From sequence record PZ445440.1: DNA of 64,000 bases; one strand, given 5' to 3'. This stretch comes from a phage. Each line of letters begins with the position of its first letter. Position 1 is the stretch's first letter. A program made the translations under genes and the position numbers. The notes below the pieces were generated by a model, which saw only the letters and a list, made by a program, of their open reading frames with translations, did no database searches and was not told the DNA's origin. Below are positions 7,569 through 46,541 of this stretch, piece by piece.

Positions 7569-8669
7569 TTACGCTGTGAAGATTTTATCCCACATCGCAA
7601 CAACTGCATCTCGATTATACTTCTTCCATACTGCTTCAGCACGTTTAACTCGAGCTTCGTATGTGTCAGTGAATTCTAATACAGCTTTTGTGTAAAGCGC
7701 AACTACTTCTTTCTTAGGAGTAGAGGAATCAATTTCTACACGCACAGTATCTGGGTCGTATTCGAATGTCGCATGAGGATAATCCTTAAAAACTAACTGG
7801 ATTACAGGGACACCTTTAGAGATGGCTTCAATAGAACTATTCTCTACCGTACCTGTGTCAGGACACGTATTAATAAGTGCTTTAGCTGTTTTAAGACGTT
7901 CCATGATTTCACTGTGTGGAGCATCAATAATAACAGGATACTTAGCCGGTGGTGCCCATTTGCTTGGACAGTATCCTGCACCATTTTCGCCTAGTGCTTT
8001 AATCGCTTCAAGAGCAACATCAGTACGACGCATTTTAGTGTCATAACGTTGTGCACTAATAATCAGATCAGTCGCCGGAAGAACTTCAGGTTTCTCATTC
8101 AAACAAATAACTGGATAATCTTCGGCTTCAAACAACGGATTTGCTCGCCAATAATCATAATCAATTTTGTCAGTCAGACCTGAAGTCATATAACAATATT
8201 TGCGTTCAAATTCACGGAAGGCTTTAGTAGGAGCATAACTCTTACCACCATTCTTATGAATTTGAATAGTCTGGTCCCAAATTTGAACAATGCCACGAGA
8301 TACCGGTTCAAATGGTGTTGCCATAAAATTCTTATGAACTTTAGAGAGACCTGCGTCTTTAATTGCCTGAACGGTTAGTTTAGTCGGTTCCGTAGTAACA
8401 ACAAAATCGTATTCATGGATGTCGGCTAGTTCAACAATCTTACGAGCCATAGTATAACTCATACCTAGACTGAATTTAGTCAGATGACCAACAGGATGAT
8501 GATTAACTTTCCAGTCACCAAACGTGTCATTATCAAAACCGATATAATCAATATCGGCACCAATAGAAACTAAATATTTCAACACATTTAAATGTACTGC
8601 TTCAAGACCACCTTGTACACGTTCTGGGTTAAATGGGACTGCGCGCGATGGGATAAACATAACTTTCAT
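7569..8669 (-). CDS. GT-B fold glycosyltransferase, candidate DNA (hmC) arabinosyltransferase
   Basis: 366 aa; C-terminal GTVENSSIEAISKGVPVI resembles the GT1/GT4 nucleotide-sugar binding motif; occupies the T4 gene 60/mobA slot; no T4 counterpart. Confidence 0.6.
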   Translation of the reverse strand: MKVMFIPSRAVPFNPERVQGGLEAVHLNVLKYLVSIGADIDYIGFDNDTFGDWKVNHHPVGHLTKFSLGMSYTMARKIVELADIHEYDFVVTTEPTKLTVQAIKDAGLSKVHKNFMATPFEPVSRGIVQIWDQTIQIHKNGGKSYAPTKAFREFERKYCYMTSGLTDKIDYDYWRANPLFEAEDYPVICLNEKPEVLPATDLIISAQRYDTKMRRTDVALEAIKALGENGAGYCPSKWAPPAKYPVIIDAPHSEIMERLKTAKALINTCPDTGTVENSSIEAISKGVPVIQLVFKDYPHATFEYDPDTVRVEIDSSTPKKEVVALYTKAVLEFTDTYEARVKRAEAVWKKYNRDAVVAMWDKIFTA

Positions 8670-10529: not shown

Positions 10530-10570
10530 GTTGTCTCCTCGTTATGAAGGTATTCTATCATCCGAAATCT

Positions 10571-10594
10571 AAAGCAAAAAGGGCCGAAGCCCTT
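10571..10594 (-). terminator. intrinsic terminator (GGGC-UUCG-GCCC hairpin + U-tract)
   Basis: Plus aaagcaaaaa-gggc-cgaa-gccc at the stop of ORF 10593-11018. Confidence 0.5.
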
Positions 10595-28710: not shown

Positions 28711-29259
28711 TTAACGAGCCCATTTGATGATTTCTGTAATCAAATCATTACGTTCGCTTGCATTAAATCCTATAACTTTGTTAGCACCATCATGATTAAG
28801 TAATTGATACGTTTGGATTTTGTTATGAATTGCAAACTCTTCAAAATGTGAAATGACTGTATTAAAACCGAATGAAGACAAAGTAATAAGGTCGTCTTCA
28901 AAACTTTCAGTCATTTCGTTACGTGTTAAAATAATTGTGAACACATCATGGTTTTGGCAAAGACGAATATAATCCTGTTCATAAACGTCAAGAACCGAGT
29001 CCGCATCTTGTCGAATACGTCCATAAACCCAGTTACTAATATACCCACGGTCTAACAGATAAATCTTAGTAGGGTCTAAATAATTCAACATCGTTTCGAA
29101 ACAGCCAACTTCGTTTCGAGACTTAACATCGAAACGCCCATCAACTGTTCGTTTAGGGAAATCAATCTTTACATATCTTTCACTAATTTCCATTACGTCA
29201 TTAATGAAAGTTGTTTTACCAGCATTATCCGGGCCGTCTACTAAAATAATTTTAGCCAT
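28711..29259 (-). CDS. P-loop nucleotide/nucleoside kinase-like protein (thymidylate-kinase-like fold)
   Basis: 182 aa; Walker A ILVDGPDNAGKTT and a DRGY motif (YLLDRGYISNWVYG) reminiscent of dNMP kinases; GAGGAA SD; sits in the T4 beta-gt slot. Confidence 0.6.
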   Translation of the reverse strand: MAKIILVDGPDNAGKTTFINDVMEISERYVKIDFPKRTVDGRFDVKSRNEVGCFETMLNYLDPTKIYLLDRGYISNWVYGRIRQDADSVLDVYEQDYIRLCQNHDVFTIILTRNEMTESFEDDLITLSSFGFNTVISHFEEFAIHNKIQTYQLLNHDGANKVIGFNASERNDLITEIIKWAR

Positions 29260-29260
29260 T

Positions 29261-30160
29261 TTATTCCTCGATTACGACATCTTCGTATTTAGGTATATTA
29301 TACGGTGAAGAAATTAAAGCATTAAAGTAGATGAACTCACCAAGACCTGGATGGAATACTTCTTCAGGATTTTCGAAATATTGAATCTTCGGACGTCCTT
29401 TAAGAATTTGATAGTACTCAGTTTTAGTTGGTTTAAAAATTCGAATCAGCGCTTCTTCAGGATACTTATTTCTGTCGAAGCTATTATTTGGATCGGTTAT
29501 ATAAAGCGGTTGACCTAATTGAATTGCACATTCAACCACTTGTTCAAAACGATAGCATGGGTCACTAATTCGAAATGGATGAAAAATACCATCTAGATGA
29601 ATAGGAGCCAAATCACCTACAAGACGCTGCATGATGGAAGGACGTATAACTTTCTGGGTTATGATAATCTTATTACCATCGGCACCTGCGTTAACCAGCA
29701 CTTCTTTTTGACGTTCATTCAACACAGTAGTTTGAAGTGAACGATTAACAGACAACATATCGGTTTTTAAGAATTCGTCAATATAAAAACGTGGTTTATT
29801 AGGGTCTGCAGTGATATTGAAATTGAATTCTACATCAAAAGCGCCGTCATATCCAGTGATATCTGTGATTAGAAAATCACAATCATAATAAGCAATTAAT
29901 GAATCAACCACAAATTCATTTTCAGACCAGAAATATTTACGAGTGTTATACGCGTTATCTTTATACCATAATGGAACAAACTTAAATTCTGGGAAAAGAC
30001 GTTCACATTCTTTAATATCAGATGCATTACGTGGATATGTAATCACATCACCCGGATTAGCACGGTGCAAATGAAGTTGGAAGTTGCCATCCTTAAGGAT
30101 AGCATACTGTCCAGTTTCATAAGACCGCATACTCAAGATAGGTACGCGGAAAATAGCCAT
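29261..30160 (-). CDS. hypothetical protein (299 aa), candidate novel DNA sugar-transferase
   Basis: No recognisable motifs; translationally coupled to gene 42 (stop/start overlap); occupies the beta-gt position. Confidence 0.6.
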   Translation of the reverse strand: MAIFRVPILSMRSYETGQYAILKDGNFQLHLHRANPGDVITYPRNASDIKECERLFPEFKFVPLWYKDNAYNTRKYFWSENEFVVDSLIAYYDCDFLITDITGYDGAFDVEFNFNITADPNKPRFYIDEFLKTDMLSVNRSLQTTVLNERQKEVLVNAGADGNKIIITQKVIRPSIMQRLVGDLAPIHLDGIFHPFRISDPCYRFEQVVECAIQLGQPLYITDPNNSFDRNKYPEEALIRIFKPTKTEYYQILKGRPKIQYFENPEEVFHPGLGEFIYFNALISSPYNIPKYEDVVIEE

Positions 30161-30876
30161 TAGTCAAGGAATCCTTTAACATAATCAAAATCACGTTCAA
30201 ACACATGGGCACTTACCATGGTATGAGTATAATCACCAACTTCTACACCACATTCGTTAGCGATATAATGAAGTAATTTTCCTTGGAGATAAAAATCCAA
30301 CTGCATAACAACAGCACAGTTCTGAGAACGCATATGACAGTGGGTATAAAGCTTACCATCACGAATATAATAAGTCACTGAGTCAGTACATGGATATTCA
30401 AGCGTTTCGTCTGAATCAAGCAAAGCCTGATCAGAACTTTCTAGAATTTGGAACACAACTCTTCGAGAGTTAGGCTTCTCTTTAAGTTCTTTTAGAAGAG
30501 CTGGTAATTGGGCCGCAATGCGAGGACCGTAGAAAGTGTTGAAGTTCGCAGGCAAAGCATCTGATTTTGGTTTAGAAATAAATTTAGCGACATTAGGATA
30601 TGCCTTAAACGCTTCTTCTGCATCAGTACCACCAGAAATCATAAACTTCCAGAAGTCTTCGGCATATTCATAAGAGATGCGGTTAATACGTGGGTCGGTC
30701 ATTTTGAATGATGATGGAGTGTCAACAACTACTGTCATAGACCCAATTTCATTACAACGTCCAATACGAGAATCAGTTACGAATTCCGGGTTTTCTAAAA
30801 TTTCACGATTGACTGCTTTAAATGCGGTTTGAAAATCTGCGGCTTTGATATATTTCATTGTGTTATGTTTTCCCAT
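30160..30876 (-). CDS. 42: dCMP hydroxymethylase gp42 (thymidylate synthase family)
   Basis: 238 aa; thymidylate-synthase-like region HCHMRSQNCAVVMQLDFYLQ; synteny upstream of the uvsX block. Confidence 0.7.
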   Translation of the reverse strand: MGKHNTMKYIKAADFQTAFKAVNREILENPEFVTDSRIGRCNEIGSMTVVVDTPSSFKMTDPRINRISYEYAEDFWKFMISGGTDAEEAFKAYPNVAKFISKPKSDALPANFNTFYGPRIAAQLPALLKELKEKPNSRRVVFQILESSDQALLDSDETLEYPCTDSVTYYIRDGKLYTHCHMRSQNCAVVMQLDFYLQGKLLHYIANECGVEVGDYTHTMVSAHVFERDFDYVKGFLD

Positions 30877-30918
30877 GTTTACCTCAATACAATTTATTAT
30901 ATACTCGATTCGTAAAGC

Positions 30919-31158
30919 TTATTTGAATTTCTTGGCAGTGTTGATATACCGTAAAGCTTCAGCATCGATACTTCCAAGAACACTATGAAGAAATGCATCA
31001 GCGTAGTATTCTAATTGAACAGGTTCTTTAATCACTTTAGCCGCTTTGGTTTCAAACAGGCCCATCAGGGCCTTTTTAAGAATTTGTTCGTTGCTGTTAA
31101 TTTTAATAGTCAAAATCTCTTCATTAAGTTGGTGGTTAAAAGTTTTTCTAGAAATCAT
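30919..31158 (-). CDS. hypothetical protein (79 aa)
   Basis: ORF with ATGA overlap to upstream gene. Confidence 0.55.
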   Translation of the reverse strand: MISRKTFNHQLNEEILTIKINSNEQILKKALMGLFETKAAKVIKEPVQLEYYADAFLHSVLGSIDAEALRYINTAKKFK

Positions 31159-32315
31159 TCCGGGTACCTCAAAGCGTCGTCAGAGTTAGTTATATCAATA
31201 ATAGATATAGAATTTTCTGATAACCCATTTTTAGATAACTGACGTTTATAATATCTTTCACAATATGTACACGTCGTCCCGCAGATTTCATTAGCACAAT
31301 CGAAATCTGGATGTCTGAACCACCTTTTTTCTAAAAAGCCATCTAACAAAGAGGTTTCAATATTTACTGTATGTGAAAACTCAGTTTCGTTTTCAAGAGT
31401 GAAAATAGTCTCTAAAGGCTTCCACAGTTCTAACAAATTACCTTCAAACTTTTCAGAAGCGTATGCTTCAAGAACTTTCAAAATGTAGTCTGTGCTACCT
31501 GTACGTCCTGAAACTTTGAATTGAGTGATACCAATATCATTATAAAGTTTCAAATCTTGGGGACGAACAAAACGAGTTCTCAACCAGTTAAATGGGTCTG
31601 TATCACGAGCTTTAATACAGTGCTGCATTGGATACCCGTTTAAGGATTTAGCATCATCAGCTGTAACATCAGTACTATGGAAAATATAGCAAGAGTCACG
31701 ATAGCTACAATGTGTTGTATACCCTTTACCAGCATTAGAACAGAACTCATTTACAAGAACTTCAAATATTATATTGTTCTTATTGCAAAACTCTGCTGCA
31801 CGCTTCAGGAAAGAAACTGAACGGTTCTTATGAATTCCACAGCAGACCTTTTTGATATTATATTGGTCATGCAAGTATTTGATTTGAGTTACAGCATCGA
31901 CATGTAGAATTGTTGAAACTTCAATCTCAATGTCTTTATTGACTTCACGAACAATTTCCATAACAACAGGGTTAGCGATAGTAATACGCCATACGCCTAT
32001 TGACCAAAGATACTGAACATAATCCTGAATAGCTTTCTTCTTCCACTCAACTAGTTCTCTTTTTGAACCAGGATTTATCGTGTTGAGTGTATAGTTAAAG
32101 CAAATACCTAATTCGTTACAACGTTTAACGTAATCTTCTAACATCTTTTTGTCAACGTCAGGAAGCCTAAAATCAGGTCTGGCTGCTACAAAAGCCATTT
32201 CTCTTGTAGAGCCGTATACTTCATTTATCAAGCTATTAGGATAAGTTTTATTGAGCTCTACGATTTTATCAAGAAGAGCTAAATCAAAATTCGTTCCGAT
32301 TTTAAAAGTATTCAT
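31155..32315 (-). CDS. Cys-rich protein of unknown function (386 aa); weak peptidase-U32-like resemblance
   Basis: Cys clusters (EVLVNEFCSNAGKGYTTHCSYRDSCY; CANEICGTTCTYC); loose resemblance to the U32 signature region; not verifiable without a profile search. Confidence 0.6.
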   Translation of the reverse strand: MNTFKIGTNFDLALLDKIVELNKTYPNSLINEVYGSTREMAFVAARPDFRLPDVDKKMLEDYVKRCNELGICFNYTLNTINPGSKRELVEWKKKAIQDYVQYLWSIGVWRITIANPVVMEIVREVNKDIEIEVSTILHVDAVTQIKYLHDQYNIKKVCCGIHKNRSVSFLKRAAEFCNKNNIIFEVLVNEFCSNAGKGYTTHCSYRDSCYIFHSTDVTADDAKSLNGYPMQHCIKARDTDPFNWLRTRFVRPQDLKLYNDIGITQFKVSGRTGSTDYILKVLEAYASEKFEGNLLELWKPLETIFTLENETEFSHTVNIETSLLDGFLEKRWFRHPDFDCANEICGTTCTYCERYYKRQLSKNGLSENSISIIDITNSDDALRYPE

Positions 32316-32371
32316 TTTTTTGCATCTCGCGTTAATTGATGCGATGGTTTTTGCAGGTCTTACTTAAATTA

Positions 32372-32758
32372 TTATAGATTCGGTTTATATGATTTAAATG
32401 TTTCGAATTCGCCTTTATTCATAAGAGCTTTGAATTCGTCAGGACGCATAGCTTTGTCGTCGATAATCCAATCATATACTGGTTTATGTGTTAGCAAATT
32501 ATGGTACTTCAATCCAATGTTTGCTAAGTTCTGAATCAGACTTGGGAGAATGTCGATTGCTATACGACCAGGACCTACTGACTTCATACCGCGAGCAGTG
32601 TAAAGCGTTATGGTATGCCCTGCATCATACAGGGCATTAATGGCAGACACCATTTCGACGTCTGGTTTGAAGTTCACATAATCACGGTTGTTATTCCACT
32701 CTGTTATACAATCATCGACATCAAAACAAAGATTAAGCATGTTTTCTACACGGTGCAT
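32372..32758 (-). CDS. HAD-superfamily phosphatase (small, cap-less)
   Basis: Motif I FDVDDCI, motif II ITLYTARG, motif III/IV K...DWIIDDKA; ATG overlaps the stop of the upstream NTase/kinase gene. Confidence 0.7.
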   Translation of the reverse strand: MHRVENMLNLCFDVDDCITEWNNNRDYVNFKPDVEMVSAINALYDAGHTITLYTARGMKSVGPGRIAIDILPSLIQNLANIGLKYHNLLTHKPVYDWIIDDKAMRPDEFKALMNKGEFETFKSYKPNL

Positions 32759-34443
32759 TAGATTCGTTCCCATTGATGAGTGATATCGCCACCGATTGGA
32801 CGATAGGAAACACCAGTTTCTTTATCAGTTAGTACCCATTTACCAGGATTTTTTGTAATAAGAGTAGCCGTTACAGGTTCTGCTACGTCATAACTAATAG
32901 AGCCGTCTTGAAGTACACGGCCCATGTTACGTAATTGCTTAGTCAGAAGTTCCATACCTTTATAATATGCGGCTACCGCTTTAAGTGGATTATTCTTGAA
33001 ATAACCACCTAATGCAATCCAGATAATTGCCACCGCCAAATGATGATACTCGTTAAACGAACTCATCTTTCCATATTTGTAAATTAATGGATTGATGTTA
33101 ATAGTCACATTACAAGTTGTTTCATCAATAGTAAACTGTCCCCAGGTCGGATTAGCATTGAATTCATCATAACCTGAAACAGCGTAAAGCACTTTAGCTT
33201 CATCGTACAATTTTGGCCCGTAAATCTTGGTTTCACCAAAATATCCACGAGGGTCGATAAACTTGACTTCGCCATTATCAGTAATCATAGTATTACTGAA
33301 GTTCGGGTCACCATGAATAACAGAGTACTGTCCCTGAGAACGGTTATGATAACGAATAAGGTGTTCTAAAGCTTGTTTCAACATTGGCTTCAGACGTCCA
33401 ATCTTAGTGTAGTTCACATGTGTGATTTTACCAAATGAATCAATCAATGGTTGAATGCTTTCACAACGATCAATAACTTTCGTATAGAATTCTTTAGTGA
33501 AATCACGACGGACAGTTTCAGGACTTACAAAATAAGTGTCTGTGCTGAATTTCAGTGCATCTAAAATTGCATCAACAATTTGTGGACGAGCAAGACTTGA
33601 TTTGGATTTAATATATTCAAATGCCGGCTTACCTTTAATGCGTTCCATTTCAAAGTTATTTTCATTAACAGAAACTAACTGAGGAACTGAATCTGATTTC
33701 ACTTTCAAGTACCACGAAATCTCATCTTTCTGAAGAGCTCGACCCTGTTCGGTTAATGCGAATTTAGTTACAGTTTCTTCACCAATTTCAACTGCATTAA
33801 AACTACGATTAAGTTCACGAACTTCATGAGCTTTTTCAAGTTTAGGCATATCACCTAAATCAATTAGATTCATAAGCTCTGATTTATTGAATGCGCCGCT
33901 GTAAAGGAATTCTACGAAATCACGTCCTTTGCAGTATTCATGAATTTCCTCATCAGTAGAACCCATATAGAATTCCCAGTCTTTGAACTGATAAATTCCT
34001 ACAACATTACCGCCTGTTGCACCTACATTAGTGATATTTTCACCGTCGAAATTATATCGACATTCGTCACCCTTAACATAGATTGCGTTAACATTCCAAG
34101 ACCATGAACCAAAATCAGGAATAATATCACACCAGTTAACAATTACGTTATGGCCGTCTAAATCTTTGTGTAATTTAGCAAGAGCATAAGCAGAACCATA
34201 CGCTTCATCAACTGTACGAATAGTCACATTGAACCCTTCTTGCTCACAATAAGCTCGAACAGTTTCAGCAAATTTTGAATGAACTACTACAATAATTTCA
34301 TCTGCGCCAAGGTCAGAATAAATTGTATACAAATTGCTCAGAATAGTGTCTTGTTTATAGTTAACAAGCACCTTAGGAATATGATGCGTTATTGGATACA
34401 AACGAGTTGCCAGTCCAGCACCAAGAATAACAGCTTTTTTCAT
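32758..34443 (-). CDS. bifunctional sugar-1-phosphate nucleotidyltransferase / anomeric sugar kinase (LicC-like N-domain + APH/choline-kinase-like C-domain)
   Basis: 561 aa; N-terminal MKKAVILGAGLATRLYPITHHIPKVLV (NTP-transferase signature); C-terminal VIHGDPNFSNTMI (Brenner HGDxxxxN) and FIDPRGYFG. Confidence 0.8.
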   Translation of the reverse strand: MKKAVILGAGLATRLYPITHHIPKVLVNYKQDTILSNLYTIYSDLGADEIIVVVHSKFAETVRAYCEQEGFNVTIRTVDEAYGSAYALAKLHKDLDGHNVIVNWCDIIPDFGSWSWNVNAIYVKGDECRYNFDGENITNVGATGGNVVGIYQFKDWEFYMGSTDEEIHEYCKGRDFVEFLYSGAFNKSELMNLIDLGDMPKLEKAHEVRELNRSFNAVEIGEETVTKFALTEQGRALQKDEISWYLKVKSDSVPQLVSVNENNFEMERIKGKPAFEYIKSKSSLARPQIVDAILDALKFSTDTYFVSPETVRRDFTKEFYTKVIDRCESIQPLIDSFGKITHVNYTKIGRLKPMLKQALEHLIRYHNRSQGQYSVIHGDPNFSNTMITDNGEVKFIDPRGYFGETKIYGPKLYDEAKVLYAVSGYDEFNANPTWGQFTIDETTCNVTININPLIYKYGKMSSFNEYHHLAVAIIWIALGGYFKNNPLKAVAAYYKGMELLTKQLRNMGRVLQDGSISYDVAEPVTATLITKNPGKWVLTDKETGVSYRPIGGDITHQWERI

Positions 34444-34484
34444 GTTGTGGTCCTCATTGGTAAGTAGAAGTATTGTACACTATT

Positions 34485-34628
34485 CTAGTTAAAGCATTCA
34501 TACTTCGCTTGTAGTCCAATCATAATCCATCCAATTACAAGTGTTGGAATCATTACTGGAGCCGTTAAGCTCCAGTAGATAGTCATGACAAGCATCAATA
34601 GTAAAAGTCCTATTGTTATTGTTTTCAT
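34485..34628 (-). CDS. small membrane protein (47 aa)
   Basis: Hand translation MKTITIGLLLLMLVMTIYWSLTAPVMIPTLVIGWIMIGLQAKYECFN; ATGA overlap with the isomerase stop. Confidence 0.4.
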   Translation of the reverse strand: MKTITIGLLLLMLVMTIYWSLTAPVMIPTLVIGWIMIGLQAKYECFN

Positions 34629-35260
34629 TGTTCGCCTCGTAACATGGCACCTAGTGCGCCGCCTGGATGGAACTTAAGGAAATCATTAGAGGTAAATCCA
34701 CGTTCAGACGAAAGGTTGATAGCGAACGTATCGATAAGCGCTAACAACAATGTAGTAGACATTGTCGGAGCTAAAGAGTTCTCGTCAACTTCTACCGCGA
34801 TACCGGTACAGAACGTATAATCAAAAAGAGCTTCGTATTCTTGTGGAATGTCAGGGTTACAATGTAACAGAATCTGTTTAACCTGAGGACGAATCATACG
34901 AAGATGTTTAGCAACACCTATCATTTCTTCAGTCTTACCAGAACGACTGATGTGAACTAATACATCATTAGGTGCAATAAATCCTGCGTCGCCATGAGAA
35001 TAATGCCCGGTGTTCAAGTACATACTCGGGATACCTAGTGAAGCAAAAGTCTCGGAAGCTTTAGTTGCGATATTAGCATTCTTACCAACACCTGTAATAA
35101 TTACACGACTTTCGTAATTACTCAGTCCAGGGCGACGAAGAGTTTCAAGAATAGCATTATATCGGGCAGGGTTTTGACTAATTATTTTAGCCATAGTGGC
35201 AAGAGATGAAGCTTGTTTTACGATTGCGTCAATAGCGATAGTGATTGGTGTAGTTTTCAT
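34625..35260 (-). CDS. D-arabinose-5-phosphate isomerase, SIS domain only (KdsD/GutQ/KpsF-like, no CBS pair)
   Basis: 211 aa; strong similarity to E. coli KdsD SIS domain from memory: GVGKNANIATKASETFASLGIPS, HGDAGFIAPNDVLVHISRSGKTEE, LAPTMSTTLLLALID, HPGGALG. Confidence 0.85.
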   Translation of the reverse strand: MKTTPITIAIDAIVKQASSLATMAKIISQNPARYNAILETLRRPGLSNYESRVIITGVGKNANIATKASETFASLGIPSMYLNTGHYSHGDAGFIAPNDVLVHISRSGKTEEMIGVAKHLRMIRPQVKQILLHCNPDIPQEYEALFDYTFCTGIAVEVDENSLAPTMSTTLLLALIDTFAINLSSERGFTSNDFLKFHPGGALGAMLRGEQ

Positions 35261-35300: not shown

Positions 35301-38012
35301 TCAAAAATCAAACATATCGAACAGAGATGCTTTCTTCTCGTAATCGAGTTTCGCTGCTGATGTGAATCCTTCAAGTGGTTTAATAAATGTCTTCTCAAGG
35401 AGAACAGTGTAGTCCATCCAATGAAGTACATCATCTTTGATTAAATCAGTGATTTCCGTACCAGAAGGCCATGCGATACATTTATCACCGAACGGGTTTC
35501 CATCACGTAAAGGCAGAACGTATACCTTTTCGCCTTCTACAACTTGTGGAGCATCAATATTACCTTTGATAGCTCGGTTATATGTCAGAATTCCACGAAT
35601 ATGGAATGGGCATTTAGGTCCTGGATATCCACCTACATCATATTTAGCAATGTTATTCGCAGAAGATACCGACGCGATGCTAATATAATTCAATTGACGG
35701 AATTCTTTTTCAAACTCTTTAAAATATTCTTGTAATGATTCTTCACCTTCTTGAAGCATACGACGAATACATTCTTTAAGAGCTTTCTGTACTGCTTTAG
35801 GGGTCGAAGATTTCTGAGTTTCTAGACCCATGATTTTGAGTTTAGGCTCAGCGTAACGAGTACCTTCCATATCCCACACGTTTAATGCATAACGTTTCTT
35901 ACCAGTCCAGAATCCACCAATACCTTTAGAACCGAGCGGAGGACCAGCGATAGCTTCTCGGTCCATGAACATTAAGTGTTGTTTATTGTTCATGTATTCA
36001 CACATTTCACGGAAACCTCTATCAATAGCAGGTTCCATACGTTCACGTGCAAACTTATCTAAGAAGTCTACCCAATGGTTGGTATCACGGAATTTAGATT
36101 CACCAACCTTATCGATAATTTTATCAGCAGATACGTAAATAGAGTCGGTATCACCATAAAGAACGAAAGCTTCACCTTCTGTACCACAAACTTCATTCAG
36201 ATATTCATTAACTTTACGTTCAATCCACTGTAAAGCCATTTGCCCAAATGTTGTGATTGCAGTAGCATTACGCAAATCATAATAACGGAACCAAACGTTT
36301 CCAAGTGCACCATAAAGTGAGTTGATAAGCAATTTACGGTTAATTTGTGCAGTCATACCTGCAACTTCAGTACGTTGAGCTCTAAACAACATTTCATTAA
36401 GAGATTTAGCAGACAACTTTTTAATCTTTTCTTTAATCTCATCACTGAAGTCGAAACGATAATCAACATCTAATGGTTCGTCAACAGAAAGATTAGGATT
36501 ATGCAATGCCTCTTTAATTATTTCACCATTACGTTGAGCTGCAAGCATGTAACCTTTATGTTCTTTACGTTGATTAAAGACCTTAGTGATTTCAGTTGGA
36601 ACTACACCATCACGGTCTTTATAATACATCATGCCGTTAGGAGAGCAACTGTACACATCTGAAGGACGTTCAGCGATTGCGTTAATATAATCATGCAGTG
36701 GAGCTACTTTAAACGTTCCTGCTATTGTTTCCGGGCTAATATTCACTTGGCGAATAATACTTGGATACAGAGATGTAAGGTCGAAACTCATTACATATTT
36801 GTATCGATTTGGAATAGGTTCCTTAACAAAAGCGCCAGGATAAGGTTGAACCGGATGAGAACGACCTTGTGGAATCACCTTGTTCTGCTCTTTAAGGCTA
36901 TTAAAAATAATAGCATCCCATGTTTTAATTGGGCTAAACACAGATTGAATCTGTATCTTAGCATAATAACCCATGTCCAAACTCAAGTTGATGAACTGAC
37001 GCTTAGCATCAATTTGCAATACACGATACACGTCGATAATGTTATAAGAAATATATCGTTGGTGATTGCTTTCACGAAGCTTAGAAATAGGGCCGTCATA
37101 TTTCAGTTTACCGACGTTCAATTCAAATTCTGAAATGTAATCCAGAGAATACGACGGTTGATTGGTAAAAGAGAATTTTTTGTAAAGGTCAATGTAATCA
37201 AGAACAGAGATACCGAACAATGTAATGATTTCACGAGAACCATACATGTTTTCGATAACTTTAACACGAGTTTTACGATGTGGTGATAAACGTTTCGCAG
37301 TAGATTCGCCAAAAATATTCTTGATTCTGTTATACACATATGGAATATCAAATGACTCAACGTTCCATCCAGTCAAAATGACAGGAGTTTTCTGTTGCCA
37401 GAAGTTGAGATATTCCATCAACAATTCTTTTTCGTTATCGAACGGCATATAAACAATTTTGTCGATAATTTCGGATGGAACTTCATCACCGCCTTGTTCT
37501 TGAAGCTTAGCAGCGATTTCAATAGACCATTCTTCTACATTACCATATGGAGAATTCAATAGATCAAATACGTAGAACCTGTCGTCAATTGAGTCATAAT
37601 GGGTGATAGCATCAATCGGATGTTTTGCTTGTGACGGCTCAGGGAACCCATCCGGAGATGTTACTTCGATGTCGAAGTTAGCCACACGAATTTTTGTATG
37701 GTCGTATTTGATTTCATAGTTATAAGTGTCAGACAAATACGCTAATTTGAAATCGTCCATGCCAAGTGCTTCAAGTCCGATATCTTCCATGCGTTTAATC
37801 CATTGTGAGGCATCACGCATATTAGCGAACAACTTACGAGTACACGGCTTACCGTAGATATCGAAATATTTCGTAGCCTGACTTTCTGGACAATGAGCAA
37901 ACAGTGATGGTTTATATTCTACTTCACGAGTACGTTCACGGCCATTAGAATCGATGTAACGTTCAAAAATTGAATCACCAATCTGTTCAACCGTTAAGTA
38001 AAATTCTTTCAT
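35301..38012 (-). CDS. 43: DNA polymerase gp43 (family B, 3'-5' exonuclease)
   Basis: 903 aa; exo motifs FDIEV, polymerase motifs DxxSLYPS and YGDTDS; sequence matches the RB69 polymerase from memory. Confidence 0.97.
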   Translation of the reverse strand: MKEFYLTVEQIGDSIFERYIDSNGRERTREVEYKPSLFAHCPESQATKYFDIYGKPCTRKLFANMRDASQWIKRMEDIGLEALGMDDFKLAYLSDTYNYEIKYDHTKIRVANFDIEVTSPDGFPEPSQAKHPIDAITHYDSIDDRFYVFDLLNSPYGNVEEWSIEIAAKLQEQGGDEVPSEIIDKIVYMPFDNEKELLMEYLNFWQQKTPVILTGWNVESFDIPYVYNRIKNIFGESTAKRLSPHRKTRVKVIENMYGSREIITLFGISVLDYIDLYKKFSFTNQPSYSLDYISEFELNVGKLKYDGPISKLRESNHQRYISYNIIDVYRVLQIDAKRQFINLSLDMGYYAKIQIQSVFSPIKTWDAIIFNSLKEQNKVIPQGRSHPVQPYPGAFVKEPIPNRYKYVMSFDLTSLYPSIIRQVNISPETIAGTFKVAPLHDYINAIAERPSDVYSCSPNGMMYYKDRDGVVPTEITKVFNQRKEHKGYMLAAQRNGEIIKEALHNPNLSVDEPLDVDYRFDFSDEIKEKIKKLSAKSLNEMLFRAQRTEVAGMTAQINRKLLINSLYGALGNVWFRYYDLRNATAITTFGQMALQWIERKVNEYLNEVCGTEGEAFVLYGDTDSIYVSADKIIDKVGESKFRDTNHWVDFLDKFARERMEPAIDRGFREMCEYMNNKQHLMFMDREAIAGPPLGSKGIGGFWTGKKRYALNVWDMEGTRYAEPKLKIMGLETQKSSTPKAVQKALKECIRRMLQEGEESLQEYFKEFEKEFRQLNYISIASVSSANNIAKYDVGGYPGPKCPFHIRGILTYNRAIKGNIDAPQVVEGEKVYVLPLRDGNPFGDKCIAWPSGTEITDLIKDDVLHWMDYTVLLEKTFIKPLEGFTSAAKLDYEKKASLFDMFDF

Positions 38013-38045
38013 TTAATTTCCTTTAGACGAGTTATTGTCTTTTGT
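38013..38045 (-). promoter_or_regulatory. candidate gp43 translational operator (RNA hairpin AGAC-AAUAACUC-GUCU adjacent to SD)
   Basis: Minus RNA AAGACAAUAACUCGUCUAAAGGAAAUUAAAUG: 4-bp stem, 8-nt loop, then SD AAGGA and the gp43 AUG. Confidence 0.45.
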
Positions 38046-38072
38046 TTGTTGGATGAACTTATTATACTCCAA

Positions 38073-38090
38073 ATGGGACCGAAGTCCCAT
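38073..38090 (-). terminator. UUCG-tetraloop hairpin between regA and gene 43 (terminator or RNA stability element)
   Basis: Plus atgggac-cgaa-gtcccat, 7-bp stem; weak U-tract; immediately followed (in transcript direction) by a TATAAT box. Confidence 0.35.
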
Positions 38091-38094
38091 TGCT

Positions 38095-38463
38095 TTAATT
38101 ACCAATTGTATATTTTGCTTTCAAAGTCCAGTCATCTTTCTGTTTAAAAGAGATAACACGGAAGTTATTAGTCAGGCTAAATAGATCTTCACGAGCAGAG
38201 TCTTCAATAACAATCAATCCCCAGTCTTCAAGCAACTGGGCAATCGAATCACGTCGCTGATAGTCTTCACCATCGATATCAACTTGACGTCCGTCCATAC
38301 GCAACATTTCTTTAAAGTGGACGATGTAGTATTTACCTTGCTTTTGGAGGATATGACAGGACTGATAAAGAACTTTATCCTTGTTATTAGCGATGCCCAT
38401 ACGGGTCAGAGTCTCTTTGACTTTCAGAAAATCTTCTGGGTTCTTCAATTTAATTTCGATCAT
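38095..38463 (-). CDS. regA: RegA translational repressor
   Basis: 122 aa from MIEIKLKNPEDFLKVKETLTRMGIANNKDKVLYQSCHIL...; matches T4 RegA from memory. Confidence 0.85.
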   Translation of the reverse strand: MIEIKLKNPEDFLKVKETLTRMGIANNKDKVLYQSCHILQKQGKYYIVHFKEMLRMDGRQVDIDGEDYQRRDSIAQLLEDWGLIVIEDSAREDLFSLTNNFRVISFKQKDDWTLKAKYTIGN

Positions 38464-38465
38464 TT

Positions 38466-39029
38466 TTACCATTCCAATGCTAATTTTTTAAATTGTTTTT
38501 GTTCTTTCACATTTTTTGTAACTTCTTTGAGAAACTCATCAGTGACCATTGCCTTCAGTTCTTTAAGGACTATTGGCAGCTTGTTATTTTTTTCAAGGAG
38601 CCGTTTATACTCGGTGGCATCATTCATGTTGATTGTGTAATGTTTCATCAACAGTTTGATAACTAGTAACTCTGAAGTGTCTTCGACTAGTTTAGCCCAT
38701 TTAGAGAATCGTCGACCACGCGGAATTGCCGCCATCATATAGTTGAAGTGCGCTTCATCACTTAATTCAGAACCGACCAAGTTCATCATGTAAACTGCGG
38801 GCATACATTCTGGAAACTGGGACAATGAGTTCTCAACCATAAATTTTGAGTAGTCGACCTGAGCAATTGACATAGATTTCTTTTCATTAATAGCATTAAT
38901 GATTTTAAAGAATTCGTTCTCAGGTTTTTCTTTAAACATGTCAGCACATTTTTGAATCGCATCAGCGTCATTAGACTTCCATGCGATTTGGTGCTCGTTA
39001 AGTTGGACGTCATCATCAAATAAGTTCAT
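38466..39029 (-). CDS. 62: clamp-loader small subunit gp62
   Basis: 187 aa (T4 gp62 187 aa as I recall); immediately downstream of gene 44. Confidence 0.8.
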
Positions 39030-43409: not shown

Positions 43410-43638
43410 TACACGCTTCAGCCATTTTAAGAATAGAGCCGGGAGTATCGTTGTCCATTATATTAAAGCTAAATTCAATAGCCCAGTCGGTGCAGACATG
43501 AACTGCTTTAACTTCATTGCCTTCAACGCGTAATGGCTCAATCCAATACTTGATAGTGTTCTCGAATCCATCATCATCTTTAACGTCTATTTCAACTTCA
43601 AGCCTGAGTCCAGCATTGTTAAATTCATCTAAAGTCAT
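43381..43638 (-). CDS. hypothetical protein (85 aa)
   Basis: ORF in gene array. Confidence 0.55.
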   Translation of the reverse strand: MTLDEFNNAGLRLEVEIDVKDDDGFENTIKYWIEPLRVEGNEVKAVHVCTDWAIEFSFNIMDNDTPGSILKMAEACIEDAYNDED

Positions 43639-44654
43639 TGTGTTGCCTCAATATAAAGTTCGTTGGAATATTTGACCAGCGCTTCTCTGTCTTCGTCTGA
43701 GATATCTGGAATCGCGTCAATATATTCTTTAATGATATCTTGAAGTGATTTAATCTCGATTTCCTGGTCGTCATCAGATTCAACACTGTTATCAACTTTA
43801 GAAACCATACGAAGAGAGTGAACTACTTTTTCAAGTTCAGATTCAAACTTAGTCAACTCTGAATCAATTTCTGATACTATAACACGTACGGCTAGATTGG
43901 TATAATCAGAATAATTGATTTTGCCTTTAAACGGATAAGTGATTCGTCGATGCCATGTTGTTTCATTAGGAATAAATTCCATACGTTCAACATCAGTGTC
44001 AAATACCCAGAATCCACGAGGATCATTCTCATCGCCTGCAGTAAGGGTCCATGGTGTCCCAATATATTTGACGTTAGCAGCTTCAGAGATTGTGTGGAAG
44101 TGGCCAGACCAGACTTGTTTATAGGTCTTTAAGAAATCAGGTTCAAGCCCATGAGACTTCATTCCTTTATAGAAATAAAAACCATTCAGTTCCCAGTGCC
44201 CAACACAATACGCTGCAGAAGAAGTCTTGATGTGCTCTAAGATTTCACCTGTATTTTCTTCACACATCCATGGAACGATATCAATCAGACATCCGTCAAA
44301 ATCTACAGTAGTTGGATGCTCGTAAATAGTAAAGTTTTCAAATTGAGTTAACAATTCAGAAACAGTGTTAGGTGTTATGGTATTCTTAAACGCCATGTCA
44401 TGATTTCCTATCGTGACATGAACGTGAATGCCTGCTTTAGAAATCATATCAACGATTTCACGATTGAATTCCATTGTACGATGTGTTATTGCTTTACGGA
44501 CGTCAAACCAATCACCGTACTGAATCCAAGTTTTAATCCCGTGTTTCTTAGAGTATTCAATTGCTTGACGAATACCATCACGTTGAATATCTTGAACCCA
44601 TGGGTCGTCTTGTTTGACTCCGATATGGAAGTCGCCTAAGTGCAAAATTTTCAT
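43635..44654 (-). CDS. 47: recombination nuclease gp47 (Mre11/SbcD-like phosphoesterase)
   Basis: 339 aa; metallophosphatase motifs LHLGDFH, GDWFD, GNHD, GHFH. Confidence 0.9.
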   Translation of the reverse strand: MKILHLGDFHIGVKQDDPWVQDIQRDGIRQAIEYSKKHGIKTWIQYGDWFDVRKAITHRTMEFNREIVDMISKAGIHVHVTIGNHDMAFKNTITPNTVSELLTQFENFTIYEHPTTVDFDGCLIDIVPWMCEENTGEILEHIKTSSAAYCVGHWELNGFYFYKGMKSHGLEPDFLKTYKQVWSGHFHTISEAANVKYIGTPWTLTAGDENDPRGFWVFDTDVERMEFIPNETTWHRRITYPFKGKINYSDYTNLAVRVIVSEIDSELTKFESELEKVVHSLRMVSKVDNSVESDDDQEIEIKSLQDIIKEYIDAIPDISDEDREALVKYSNELYIEATQ

Positions 44655-44694
44655 ATTATTTCCTCATTAGTTAATTCATTCTATCATCCGTTTA

Positions 44695-44724
44695 TAAAGC
44701 AAAAAAGGAACTCCGAAGAGTTCC
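44695..44724 (-). terminator. intrinsic terminator (GGAACUC-UUCG-GAGUUCC + U6)
   Basis: Plus aaaaaa-ggaactc-cgaa-gagttcc immediately after the stop of the small ORF 44724-44897. Confidence 0.6.
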
Positions 44725-44897
44725 TATCCACATAGTACACCGTACAGAGGCTCATTTGAACTTTTAAATCGAATGGGCTTGTATGTAATAGTTCCTTCGG
44801 CTTTAGCTTTATCATAAGACTCTTTAAAACGTCTCATTCTTTCTGCTTTGCCTTTACGGATTTTATCGAAATTTTCAGAAGTCGGGATGTTCGTCAT
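44724..44897 (-). CDS. small hypothetical protein (57 aa)
   Basis: Hand translation MTNIPTSENFDKIRKGKAERMRRFKESYDKAKAEGTITYKPIRFKSSNEPLYGVLCG; terminator directly after its stop. Confidence 0.45.
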   Translation of the reverse strand: MTNIPTSENFDKIRKGKAERMRRFKESYDKAKAEGTITYKPIRFKSSNEPLYGVLCG

Positions 44898-44936
44898 GCA
44901 TAAGCACCTCTCAGAAAATGCCTAAATCAATTTCTC

Positions 44937-45158
44937 TCATCGTTTCCACCATTTCTTAACTTGAAATGAATCGACCCACACGAGTTGTTTTGGGTCTGCC
45001 TTTACAATAGGCGGACAAATTTCTGTAATAGAACCGTCGTGATATTCCTTTTCAGAAATTTTAACACAAAGAGGACCTCCCAATTTAAGGGTGAACCCTG
45101 CGTTCAGCTTCAGACGTTTAAACTTTATTTGAACTAGCGCCATTAATGATGTCCTCAA
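44937..45158 (-). CDS. hypothetical protein (73 aa)
   Basis: ORF in the slot where T4 has alpha-gt. Confidence 0.5.
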   Translation of the reverse strand: MRTSLMALVQIKFKRLKLNAGFTLKLGGPLCVKISEKEYHDGSITEICPPIVKADPKQLVWVDSFQVKKWWKR

Positions 45159-45441
45159 TAGCCTGACGAGTAGTAACCCACTGGATTTTAATTAACTTGT
45201 CATTGTATGGTTGTCGTAGAATATCCCGAGATTTCTTAATAGCATATTCGTAAGCTTCGAAGTTGTTTTGAATTGCTGCTTCTTGAGCATGAGCATAAAG
45301 ACGGTTTAGTTCAAAACGATTCTTTTTAAGAATCTTTTCGGATTTTTTACGTGCTTCAGCTTCATTTTTCTTTTGGATTTCTTGTAGCATTTTAGCTACT
45401 GCATCTTCTGCTTCTTTATTTTCAATAATCTCGGTAGTCAT
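45118..45441 (-). CDS. hypothetical protein (107 aa)
   Basis: ORF in gene array. Confidence 0.55.
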   Translation of the reverse strand: MTTEIIENKEAEDAVAKMLQEIQKKNEAEARKKSEKILKKNRFELNRLYAHAQEAAIQNNFEAYEYAIKKSRDILRQPYNDKLIKIQWVTTRQAIEDIINGASSNKV

Positions 45442-45442
45442 A

Positions 45443-45658
45443 TTATCTCATTAAATTAAAATAAAAACGTCCATCCTCTTCAATACAGAACTCGTACTCA
45501 ACTGGAGTTCCATTTATCGAAAATGACACGTCATGTGGGTTCAAAGGGTCGATGTCAAAATTAATTTTAAATTCTCGACCCAACAGTTTTACCAAATAAG
45601 GGATTGCTTCGTCAAAAGGTTCTTCTAAGTAGTTAGAGATGTCAATTGTCATCCTCAT
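45443..45658 (-). CDS. hypothetical protein (start uncertain)
   Basis: Track ORF overlaps the gene 55 3' end; start moved to an internal ATG. Confidence 0.4.
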
Positions 45659-46199
45659 ATAAAAAATCCAAACTAGGCGAATCGCTAACAACTTCCTTCT
45701 TTTCAGCCCCAGGAGCTTTATAAGCGGATTCTTCATAATGCGTCATTTTATCGTAGATGTCTTGAATAAACGTTTCATCTACCAACGCTACCATATCATC
45801 GTCATGACTGTCGTAGACATTATGAACGAAGTAACTATATTTCTTTGCAACTTCCTTACGTTCTTTTTTGATACGTTGGACAAAAGCATTAAAACAAGCT
45901 CGAGTTATGTATGCATGTGGGTTATTGTACTTAGTTTCGTCGAAATTATGAAGTCCCTTAATAGAGGCTTCAATCCCATCTGCAATCATCTCCTGCTTCC
46001 AAGACTGGGTATATCCTGAAAAGTTGAAACGTTTGGACAGGCCTTCGGCGATAAGCATAATTGCTAAACCGATGGTATCATTCTGACGAATAATTTTGTT
46101 TGGGTCTTTATTATTTAAGAGCTCCTTTTTCCACTCGATTATAGCGGCGAGAAGCTCTTTATTATTCACATAGTTATTTTTAGGTTTTTGTTCAGTCAT
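45642..46199 (-). CDS. 55: late-transcription sigma factor gp55
   Basis: 185 aa; [105 protein letters not shown] nearly identical to T4 gp55 from memory. Confidence 0.95.
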
Positions 46200-46274
46200 A
46201 AGTACCTCTTAGCTCAATTCATAGGTCTATTATATCATAATATTTAGAGACCTATCTTAAAGCACGAGATACTA

Positions 46275-46541
46275 TCAGAGCAAACAATAAGCCTGAAACA
46301 CTTTTTCCATTAAACGTTTGAACTCATGGATATCGATATAAAGCTCAGTAAGACCGGCATTATAAAGAAAATCTAAAAAGTTCTCATGTGTTTCGTTATA
46401 GACGCCTTCGTTTAATTGAGATACATGAGTTTCCCAAAAACCAACACCTTTAACGAATGGAAAATACGTGACTTTCATGTATTCGTCAACATAAAATTCG
46501 CCCAGCTTTTCTTCAGTTATACTGATTCGAGTTAATTTCAT
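46275..46541 (-). CDS. hypothetical protein (88 aa)
   Basis: ORF in gene array. Confidence 0.55.
   Translation of the reverse strand: MKLTRISITEEKLGEFYVDEYMKVTYFPFVKGVGFWETHVSQLNEGVYNETHENFLDFLYNAGLTELYIDIHEFKRLMEKVFQAYCLL

Follow-up and report, generated by a model that had tools for sequence, protein, structure and literature searches.

The stretch between genes 47 and 55 of this phage very probably (at about 90%) is a standard RB69-like interval with a composite of terminator and middle promoter, and as such represents the ordinary, already published layout of RB69-like (Mosigvirus) T-even phages. Judged by homology and gene order, the four small open reading frames (ORFs) in the interval do not fill the slot of the α-glucosyltransferase gene (a-gt) of T4, but are neighbours that T4 has too, beside a-gt. 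The window, i.e., the whole stretch of 64,000 nt that was analysed, corresponds at 100% identity to Escherichia phage ChristianSchoenbein (Bas46, MZ501056.1, genus Mosigvirus), and spans bases 64479-128478 of that record, the complete genome being 169,031 bp. The interval covers positions 44655-45641 (987 nt, exact coordinates), where 44655 directly follows the gene 47 start codon, and 45641 directly precedes the gene 55 stop codon. As the preliminary description had it, this region of about 1 kb contains four small ORFs (57–107 aa), all on the minus strand, and one intrinsic terminator, and the position that it gave for a-gt in T4, between genes 47 and 55, is borne out by the layout of NC_000866 (47 / 47.1 / a-gt / mobB / a-gt.2-.5 / 55). 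The 987 nt are not a true gap, because the ORF adjoining gene 55 overlaps this gene by 17–23 nt. Since a-gt in T4 is located between 47/47.1 and mobB/a-gt.2, the slot proper that stands empty here is no larger than a spacer of 69 nt (44655-44723). Within this spacer are a terminator hairpin with a UUCG loop, the ribosome-binding site of gene 47, and a MotA box of consensus sequence that is followed by a −10 element. The bordering gene products are 76% (gp47, across 339 aa) and 91% (gp55) identical to their T4 counterparts. All features are listed in Table 1.

Table 1. Features of the gene 47–55 interval and related loci in the window.
Feature	Coordinates	Strand	Remarks
Putative arabinosyltransferase 2, bas46_0103, 366 aa	7569..8669	-	GenBank "putative hmC-arabinosyltransferase"; adjoins large topoisomerase subunit gene (T4 gene 39)
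Second hairpin-plus-MotA-box module	10570..10594	-	Upstream of large topoisomerase subunit gene; custom whole-genome scan; also a MotA-pattern match
Putative arabinosyltransferase 1, bas46_0141, 299 aa	29261..30160	-	98–100% identity to RB69 ORFs 046+047
5-Hydroxy-dCMP synthase, thymidylate-synthase homologue	30160..30876	-	Position of T4 gene 42; 100% identity to RB69 gp48
Gene 47 (Mre11/SbcD-like recombination nuclease subunit), 339 aa	43635..44654	-	Downstream border; bas46_0159
Shine-Dalgarno GAGG of gene 47	44662..44665	-	7 nt upstream of ATG
Predicted sigma-70 −10 element TAGAAT	44678..44683	-	11 nt downstream of MotA box
MotA box TTTTGCTTTA	44695..44704	-	Perfect match to consensus (a/t)(a/t)(a/t)TGCTTtA
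Intrinsic terminator (predicted)	44700..44725	-	Hairpin AGGAACUC-UUCG-GAGUUCCU at 44725-44706, then U6
a-gt.2 orthologue, 57 aa, DUF5486	44724-44897	-	PF17588 at 4.5e-28; 76% identity to T4 a-gt.2
a-gt.3 orthologue, 68 aa, no Pfam family	44937-45143	-	PHROG 1648 at 2e-34; 71% identity to T4 a-gt.3
a-gt.4 orthologue, 107 aa, DUF2654	45118-45441	-	PF10849 at 1e-27; 58% identity to T4 a-gt.4
a-gt.5 orthologue, 71 aa, DUF5491	45443-45658	-	PF17595 at 5.8e-13; 47% identity to T4 a-gt.5
Gene 55 (late-transcription sigma factor), 185 aa	45642..46199	-	Upstream border; bas46_0164

By their conservation, the four ORFs are real genes and not chance ORFs. Their products are 47–76% identical to the T4 proteins, with the order kept, and the order a-gt.2 to a-gt.5 between genes 47 and 55 is common to T4, RB69, Mineola, and KIT01; the 57-aa orthologue also bears the name a-gt.2 in the annotations of RB69 and mar005P1. 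Profile searches assign three of them to DUF5486, DUF2654, and DUF5491 (97.3, 96.6, and 49.4 bits, where the curated cut-offs are 27, 25, and 27), and a-gt.3 to PHROG 1648. These DUFs are the only Pfam matches of the four ORFs, with nothing glycosyltransferase-like among them, and PHROGs and NCBIfam likewise return only DUF or unknown-function families, one secondary label aside, so that the earlier statement that the interval holds no glycosyltransferase-like sequence stands. The exception is phrog_17354, "head maturation protease", for a-gt.2 (1.9e-14), a weaker secondary match that we regard as an annotation artefact. The start codons of two of the genes allow alternatives: a-gt.3 has 68 aa from the annotated ATG and 73 aa if an upstream TTG is used, and for a-gt.5, the annotated ATG gives 71 aa, another in-frame ATG two codons upstream (45664) gives 73 aa, and the mechanical ORF comprises 97 aa. 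Comparison of the small proteins with the PDB by phmmer gave no match below E = 0.7. A single-sequence AlphaFold model of a-gt.4 is all-helical with four helices (pLDDT 75), and its best Foldseek match in the PDB is no better than E = 4; the corresponding model of a-gt.3 is unreliable (pLDDT 47). A full-text literature search for a-gt.2 to a-gt.5 yielded one passing mention only.

Given their position beside the T4 a-gt site, and with no function assigned to them, one of the four ORFs might be thought to stand in for a-gt as a hitherto undescribed component of DNA modification or sugar transfer, and this is the sole argument for such a role. T4, T2-type phages, and Jiaodavirus have all four genes as well as a-gt, which also overturns the earlier reading that the slot holds small ORFs instead of a-gt. 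By tblastn, the 107-aa a-gt.4 protein is matched in 1443 phage records whatever the modification type, Acinetobacter, Vibrio, and Aeromonas phages included, which makes the gene nearly a core gene of Straboviridae. Furthermore, a GT-A or GT-B fold requires more than the 57–107 aa of these proteins, a-gt.4 being predicted to consist of four helices, and the arabinosylation genes are already accounted for elsewhere in the genome. Replacement of a-gt by a small ORF is therefore exceedingly improbable, and can be considered effectively refuted.

Bas46 carries no homologue of a-gt, the β-glucosyltransferase gene b-gt, or ba-gt anywhere in its genome. When all 169,031 bp were searched by tblastn with T4 a-gt and b-gt and T2-type a-gt and ba-gt as queries, the best E-values ranged from 0.066 to 4.2, namely 0.066 for a-gt (T4, DalCa, and Mineola queries), 0.82 for ba-gt, and 4.2 for b-gt. 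Across 683 six-frame fragments searched without filters, the best E-value of a three-sequence a-gt HMM was 0.36, and phmmer gave 1.6 for b-gt and 0.34 for ba-gt. The T4 a-gt match with E = 0.066, at record positions 140468-140647 (27% over 69 aa), is attributed to chance, the HMM giving E = 0.55 there. Neither mobB nor 47.1 was found anywhere in the complete Bas46 genome. RB69 has been described as being without the a-gt, b-gt, and ba-gt genes (PMC6024577, PMC13326640), and both the absence of α- and β-glucosyltransferases in RB69-like phages and their arabinosylated cytosine derivatives are already known.

The preliminary description took the missing gene as a sign that glucosylation had been given up for arabinose. 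The arabinose part of this claim agrees with the gene content, as the proteins of the arabinose cluster are 96–100% identical to those of RB69, but the change relative to T4 is not a sugar swap on hydroxymethylcytosine; the base precursor is instead 5-hydroxy-dCMP. The 5-hydroxy-dCMP synthase activity of RB69 gp48 has been demonstrated experimentally (PMC13326640), and the Bas46 homologue shows only 24.8% identity to T4 gp42. With 5-hydroxy-dCMP as the precursor, T4-type glucosyltransferases would presumably be without substrate. Bas46 DNA itself is reported to carry 5-arabinosyl-arabinosyl-hydroxycytosine (bioRxiv 10.64898/2025.12.19.695335; PMC13326640). Bas46 would have no need of a glucosyltransferase: its cytosines are replaced by 5-hydroxycytosine, to which two unrelated GT-B enzymes, encoded at other loci, would attach the arabinose. 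The first, bas46_0141, sits between uvsX and the gene 42 homologue, i.e., in the T4 b-gt position, and neither Pfam nor BLAST relates it to a-gt or b-gt; its RB69 counterpart, ORFs 046+047, has been modelled as a GT-B glycosyltransferase (PMC13326640). The second, bas46_0103, is likened to RB69 ORF003c (PMC6024577, PMC13326640), with which it has its length (366 aa) and its genomic location in common, rIIA being on one side and the gene for the large topoisomerase subunit on the other.

The hairpin in the spacer has a stem of 8 bp, which starts within the a-gt.2 stop codon, and is closed by a UUCG tetraloop, with a predicted RNA folding energy of −13.9 kcal/mol (z-score −3.9 against shuffles). 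It has the sequence features of a Rho-independent terminator, and would be expected to act as one in Bas46. Hairpins with different stem sequences occupy the equivalent position in T4, T2-type phages, Jiaodavirus, Dhakavirus, Gaprivervirus, and Lazarusvirus. Most of these have a TTCG loop; KIT01 has TTAG, and MN01 has CTAGT. An Rfam scan of 44300-46300 gave nothing at E ≤ 1. A terminator-like hairpin on the plus strand (44994-45016) is located inside a-gt.3 on the non-coding strand, lies within chance expectation, and was rejected.

Middle promoters have a MotA box 12 ± 1 bp upstream of a sigma-70 −10 element, TAtaaT (Hinton 2010, PMC2988021), and the elements in the spacer predict a transcription start near 44672, as for an equivalent of the T4 promoter P47. 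The pattern TGCTTTA-N11-13-TANNNT occurs nine times in the window against 0.92 expected, a count that none of 100 shuffles reaches, and MotA (bas46_0089) and an AsiA/anti-sigma70 protein (bas46_0082) are present according to the GenBank annotation. Based on this pattern and on the analogy with T4, the spacer element probably functions as a MotA-dependent middle promoter, equivalent to P47. In T4, transcription starts have been mapped at 36576 for P47 and 38682 for PmobB (PMC2988021 Table 1), and in each of the two hairpin-plus-MotA-box modules of T4 the −10 element precedes the mapped start by 6–7 nt. The two modules lie at the mapped promoters PmobB and P47, one on each side of mobB and a-gt.

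In the proposed arrangement, gene 55, a-gt.5, a-gt.4, a-gt.3, and a-gt.2 would form one tightly packed, partly overlapping minus-strand unit that ends at the UUCG-loop terminator, and a MotA/AsiA-dependent middle promoter, fused directly to the terminator, would restart transcription into genes 47 and 46. Elements of this kind have been described in T4-like phages as promoter-middle stem-loops (PmSL), which are a variant of promoter-early stem-loops (PeSL). T4 has two composites, which enclose an accessory cassette of mobB and a-gt, with 47.1 after the second copy, and Mosigvirus has a single copy and no cassette. As in T4, a-gt has a module copy on either side in DalCa and Mineola, compared with a single copy in the a-gt-less Mosigvirus, Gaprivervirus, and Dhakavirus. 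The cassette could be added or removed by recombination between the repeated modules.

Across Straboviridae, the gene 47 site varies. Six of the eight sampled genera (Mosigvirus, Gaprivervirus, Dhakavirus, Gelderlandvirus, Krischvirus, and Lazarusvirus) lack a-gt there, and the gene is present at the identical site in Tequatrovirus and the more distant Jiaodavirus. At least 137 Mosigvirus-like records (at least 90% identity) share the a-gt.2–47 junction, each as one uninterrupted piece among the matches listed. Three unrelated freestanding homing endonucleases are encoded at the site: mobB in T4, an HNH-AP2 gene in RB49, and a Seg-like gene in Dhakavirus. These genomes document the position immediately upstream of gene 47 as a point where accessory genes (a-gt, 47.1, and homing endonucleases) are recurrently inserted.

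How the slot came to be empty can be explained in two ways. In the first, the loss supposed in the preliminary description, the ancestor of Tequatrovirus and Mosigvirus may have had a-gt at this site, and Mosigvirus may have deleted a-gt together with 47.1 after the switch to arabinosylated 5-hydroxycytosine, possibly by recombination between the flanking modules; we give this somewhat less than even odds. T4 and Mosigvirus are sister groups in a gp47+gp55 tree (bootstrap 100), a-gt occupies exactly one shared site in Tequatrovirus and Jiaodavirus, and the identity between T4 and Mineola a-gt (67%) is close to that of the flanking gp47 (70%) and gp55 (78%), as vertical descent predicts. The direct repeats around a-gt would be a suitable substrate for deletion, and in alignment with T4, the left half of the Bas46 spacer, up to the MotA box, resembles module A, and the right half, beyond the box, resembles module B. 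The argument for a chimeric spacer is weakened by a 13-mer (CGGATGATAGAAT) common to the gene 47 module and the unrelated topoisomerase module, one of two clear module copies on the early strand in a whole-genome scan, since the likeness may then reflect promoter constraint and not recombination. Deletion also has to account for the other five genera that lack a-gt at the site, and on the local tree it needs one gain and three losses, compared with two gains for the alternative. Moreover, no remnant of a-gt is left, and recombination between modules A and B would retain 47.1, which Mosigvirus does not have; deletion therefore requires a second event.

Alternatively, the single-module, a-gt-less state may be ancestral, as seen in Mosigvirus, Gaprivervirus, and Lazarusvirus, with Tequatrovirus and Jiaodavirus having gained an a-gt cassette with its own module at the resident MotA box; we give this the same odds as deletion. 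Parsimony on the local tree favours this explanation, although the tree is built on two proteins and nine genomes only. Over its entire length, leader and start codon included, the Bas46 spacer finds its best match in the one module of Gaprivervirus MN01, which lacks a-gt, with a score of 83 as compared with 49 for T4 module A; the gene 47 leader of Bas46 also precedes 47.1 in MN01. The three unrelated homing endonucleases make the site a demonstrable insertion hotspot, and PeSL/PmSL elements have been reported to mediate such insertions and deletions in T4-like phages (Comeau et al. 2014, PMC4122927, which makes no mention of a-gt). An ancestral empty site demands two insertions at one place, or transfer between genera, and a-gt has diverged between T4 and Jiaodavirus by as much as the core genes beside it, with no sign of recent transfer.

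More tentatively, and as less likely than not, we propose that a-gt is a portable unit, consisting of the gene and one terminator/middle-promoter module, that moves in or out through recombination at the MotA box of the resident module just upstream of gene 47, and that the Mosigvirus spacer is the empty site, a hotspot also used by the three homing endonucleases. If so, the DNA-modification type of T-even phages could switch by cassette swap at regulatory repeats, and not by gradual gene decay. The modification chemistry has already been determined for Bas46 itself, and the present result matters little beyond correct annotation. What is added is the relocation of the slot from the four ORFs to the 69-nt spacer, and the description of the spacer as a compact composite of terminator and predicted MotA promoter, equivalent by position to the mapped P47 and PmobB of T4. 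A recurrent insertion point may also be of help in phage engineering, or in tracing the movement of DNA-modification genes.

The closest relative is RB69, the type species of Mosigvirus (NC_004928, RB69p066-p071), where the order 47, a-gt.2, a-gt.3, a-gt.4, a-gt.5, 55 is as in Bas46, and the DNA of the interval is 98.5% identical over 2565 nt without gaps. The 69-nt spacers of the two phages differ at one base, giving TAAAAT as the −10 element in RB69 and TAGAAT in Bas46, and the a-gt.5 start codon has been chosen differently in the two annotations. The corresponding region of T4 (NC_000866, 35428-40157) has genes 47, 55, and a-gt.2 to a-gt.5 in the order and orientation of Bas46, with an additional 2283 bp that contain mobB (HNH homing endonuclease), a-gt, and 47.1. 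Both phages have a hairpin-plus-MotA-box module downstream of a-gt.2, but T4 has a second copy (P47) downstream of a-gt, whereas the single module of Bas46 is placed directly ahead of gene 47. The PeSL, as composite terminator-promoter elements of T4-like phages, were reportedly described by Arbiol and co-workers in 2010. As in PeSL and PmSL, a stem-loop is followed by a promoter in Bas46, here of the middle (Mot-box) type like the published PmSLs; the element has more than one copy in the genome, and the genes beside it differ from one related phage to the next. The published cases concern other phage pairs (RB49/phi1, PST/T4, and nt-1/KVP40) and mostly hyperplastic regions. The predicted Bas46 promoter further resembles the MotA/AsiA middle promoters of T4 in the consensus box, the TAnnnT −10 element 11 nt downstream, and the location upstream of a middle gene, and differs from them in the cytosines of the MotA box, which are arabinosyl-hydroxycytosine in Bas46 and glucosyl-hydroxymethylcytosine in T4.

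The segment 43600-46250 is a 100% megablast match to Escherichia phage ChristianSchoenbein (Bas46, BASEL collection, MZ501056.1; Straboviridae, Tevenvirinae, Mosigvirus phapec2), and at least about 137 further Mosigvirus-like records match it at 95% identity or more. When the whole 169,031-bp record is compared, the full 64-kb window is identical to positions 64479-128478, and window coordinates are therefore record coordinates minus 64478.

The stretch separating gene 47 from gene 55 is exactly 44655-45641. The preliminary description placed a terminator and four small ORFs (57-107 aa), and no glycosyltransferase, in this position of the T4 α-glucosyltransferase gene (a-gt). ORF analysis, terminator scan, Pfam, and PHROGs confirm this content, and the T4 record (47, 47.1, a-gt, mobB, a-gt.2, a-gt.3, a-gt.4, a-gt.5, 55) agrees on the location of a-gt. 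The four ORFs are real, but they do not fill the slot: they are the conserved T4 neighbours a-gt.2 to a-gt.5, in T4 order, and are annotated as such in the RB69 and mar005P1 records. Three belong to DUF5486, DUF2654, and DUF5491, while Pfam returned no family for the fourth; the PHROGs matches are to families of unknown function, and neither resource gave a glycosyltransferase signal in the interval. A PHROGs label of head maturation protease on one ORF was a weaker secondary match and was discounted. Since a-gt.2 to a-gt.5 also accompany a-gt in T4, DalCa (T2-type), and Klebsiella phage Mineola (Jiaodavirus), their presence is uninformative on glucosylation. The a-gt.4 protein, four helices in a single-sequence AlphaFold model, matches 1443 phage records, Acinetobacter, Vibrio, and Aeromonas phages among them; PDB sequence search, NCBIfam, AlphaFold, and Foldseek were uninformative on the function of the four proteins. 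There are two in-frame ATGs in a-gt.5 (MRMTID..., 45655-45664, minus strand), and because T4 a-gt.5 starts MRLTIN, translation may in fact begin at the upstream one (45664), with a gene 55 overlap of 23 nt versus the annotated 17 nt.

Features discussed (window positions unless an L-number, denoting another phage sequence, is given; identities by tblastn for a-gt.2 to a-gt.5)
Feature	Position	Strand	Remarks
Putative second arabinosyltransferase	7569-8669		
uvsX-gene 43 cluster	about 28711-35260		
bas46_0141, putative first arabinosyltransferase	29261-30160	minus	299 aa
Protein at T4 gene 42 position	30160-30876	minus	
bas46_0146	32758-34443	minus	561 aa
Gene 47	43635-44654	minus	ATG at 44654
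Spacer	44655-44723		69 nt
Shine-Dalgarno of gene 47	44665-44662	minus	GAGG
Predicted -10 element	44683-44678	minus	TAGAAT
MotA box to -10 spacing	44694-44684	minus	11 nt
MotA box	44704-44695	minus	TTTTGCTTTA; match to consensus
T run (U6)	44705-44700	minus	
Terminator hairpin	44725-44706	minus	AGGAACUC-UUCG-GAGUUCCU; begins within a-gt.2 stop codon
a-gt.2 orthologue	44724-44897	minus	57 aa; 76% identical to T4
a-gt.3 orthologue	44937-45143	minus	68 aa; 71%
a-gt.4 orthologue	45118-45441	minus	107 aa; 58%
a-gt.5 orthologue	45443-45658	minus	71 aa; 47%
Gene 55	45642-46199	minus	
T4 mobB	L004:4886-5680		
KIT01 endonuclease	L012:3215-4069		
RB49 endonuclease	L015:2783-3337		
47.1 homologue, DalCa	L017:828-1003		unannotated
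47.1 homologue, MN01	L018:1581-1777		unannotated
47.1 homologue, CGG4-1	L014:3526-3736		unannotated

Searches of the complete genome by tblastn with T4 a-gt and b-gt (β-glucosyltransferase), T2-type a-gt and ba-gt (β-α-glucosyltransferase), Mineola a-gt, 47.1, and mobB gave nothing credible, with a lowest E-value of 0.066 for a-gt and at least 0.33 for the others. An a-gt HMM and filter-free phmmer on 683 six-frame fragments returned no homologue (E ≥ 0.34), and thus no a-gt or b-gt homologue was found elsewhere in the genome. A 2018 paper already reported that RB69 lacks a-gt, b-gt, and ba-gt (PMC6024577), and the a-gt-less interval is the usual, already known arrangement in RB69-like phages.

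The uvsX-gene 43 cluster is 96-100% identical to RB69 gp45-gp55. The protein at the T4 gene 42 position has 24.8% identity to T4 dCMP hydroxymethylase and 100% to RB69 gp48, which makes 5-hydroxy-dCMP according to experiment (PMC13326640); as a 5-hydroxy-dCMP synthase, it renders the Bas46 GenBank label "dCMP hydroxymethylase" outdated. The T4 b-gt position is filled by the putative first arabinosyltransferase, and Bas46 DNA is reported to carry 5-arabinosyl-arabinosyl-hydroxycytosine (10.64898/2025.12.19.695335; PMC13326640). The parent of the modified base is 5-hydroxycytosine rather than hydroxymethylcytosine. Both bas46_0141 and bas46_0146 are single intact ORFs, each represented by two in the RB69 reference record (046/047 and 052/053, respectively), in agreement with a published remark, made for genes 46 and 47, attributing the RB69 split to a sequencing error.

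The block absent in comparison with T4 spans T4 36448-38730 (2283 bp) and comprises 47.1, a-gt, and mobB, which encodes a homing endonuclease; the empty slot is the 69-nt terminator/promoter counterpart of this block, not the four ORFs. The one good terminator in the interval, predicted at 44725-44700, has a folding energy of -13.9 kcal/mol (z-score -3.9) and is followed by a predicted middle promoter conforming to the MotA-box consensus and spacing of Hinton 2010 (PMC2988021). The pattern TGCTTTA-N11-13-TANNNT occurs nine times in the window versus 0.92 expected. A second hairpin (AAGGGC-TTCG-GCCCTT) and MotA-box module lies at 10570-10594 (minus), upstream of the large topoisomerase subunit gene, and has the 13-mer CGGATGATAGAAT in common with the gene 47 module.

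The preliminary description attributed the missing gene to loss of glucosylation in favour of the arabinose system. That system is present; the loss is unproven, and a-gt is about equally likely never to have been present in the Mosigvirus lineage. On a neighbour-joining tree of gp47+gp55, with (T4, Mosigvirus) at bootstrap 100, (Dhakavirus, Gaprivervirus) at 96, and (Gelderlandvirus, Jiaodavirus) at 86, two gains suffice to explain the a-gt distribution, whereas loss calls for one gain and three losses. Against this simple parsimony, a-gt occupies the identical site in both a-gt-bearing genera, and T4-Mineola a-gt identity (67%) is in line with the flanking genes. The Bas46 spacer aligns full length with the single module of the a-gt-less Gaprivervirus. 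Against the two T4 copies, which lie after a-gt.2 and after a-gt, its part to the left of the MotA box matches module A and its part to the right matches module B; this fits either insertion into, or deletion between, MotA boxes. Because the right-hand motif recurs in the second genome module, part of the resemblance may be due to promoter constraint, which leaves the two histories balanced. The description was accurate as observation and mostly right as interpretation.

A survey of nine genomes found, at the site upstream of gene 47, mobB, a-gt, and 47.1 in T4 (Tequatrovirus), a-gt and 47.1 in DalCa (Tequatrovirus), a-gt in Mineola, 47.1 only in MN01 (Gaprivervirus), a Seg-like homing endonuclease in KIT01 (Dhakavirus), small ORFs and 47.1 in CGG4-1 (Gelderlandvirus), an HNH-AP2 endonuclease in RB49 (Krischvirus), and nothing in Apostate (Lazarusvirus) or in Bas46 and RB69 (Mosigvirus). 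At this position, three lineages each have a freestanding homing endonuclease of their own. For the KIT01 gene, the record lists a hypothetical protein whose start is placed 28 codons too far downstream; initiation at the earlier ATG yields 284 aa, matching PHROG homing-endonuclease families (8e-83) and, weakly, GIY-YIG. Homologues of 47.1, small predicted membrane ORFs with the motif ...RACW[IV]GFFSTPDGFIS..., are absent from Mosigvirus. In Mineola (L010:3947-3994), the annotation starts a-gt within the terminator hairpin that follows a-gt.2, 18 codons before the start that is homologous to that of T4 (MKINILMARG...).

Composites of this type are known as PeSLs (PmSLs in the Mot-box form), proposed agents of insertions and deletions in T4-like genomes (PMC4122927). 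T4 carries the hairpin and MotA-box composite twice, after a-gt.2 and after a-gt, so that mobB and a-gt are bracketed by terminator/middle-promoter modules; the experimentally mapped middle-promoter starts PmobB (38682) and P47 (36576) each follow one of the two -10 elements at a distance of 6-7 nt. This bracketing of a-gt by duplicated modules, at a site also used by several mobile genes, is the only modestly new element. Compared with T4, Mosigvirus has a single module copy, which is predicted from its sequence to drive gene 47 directly.
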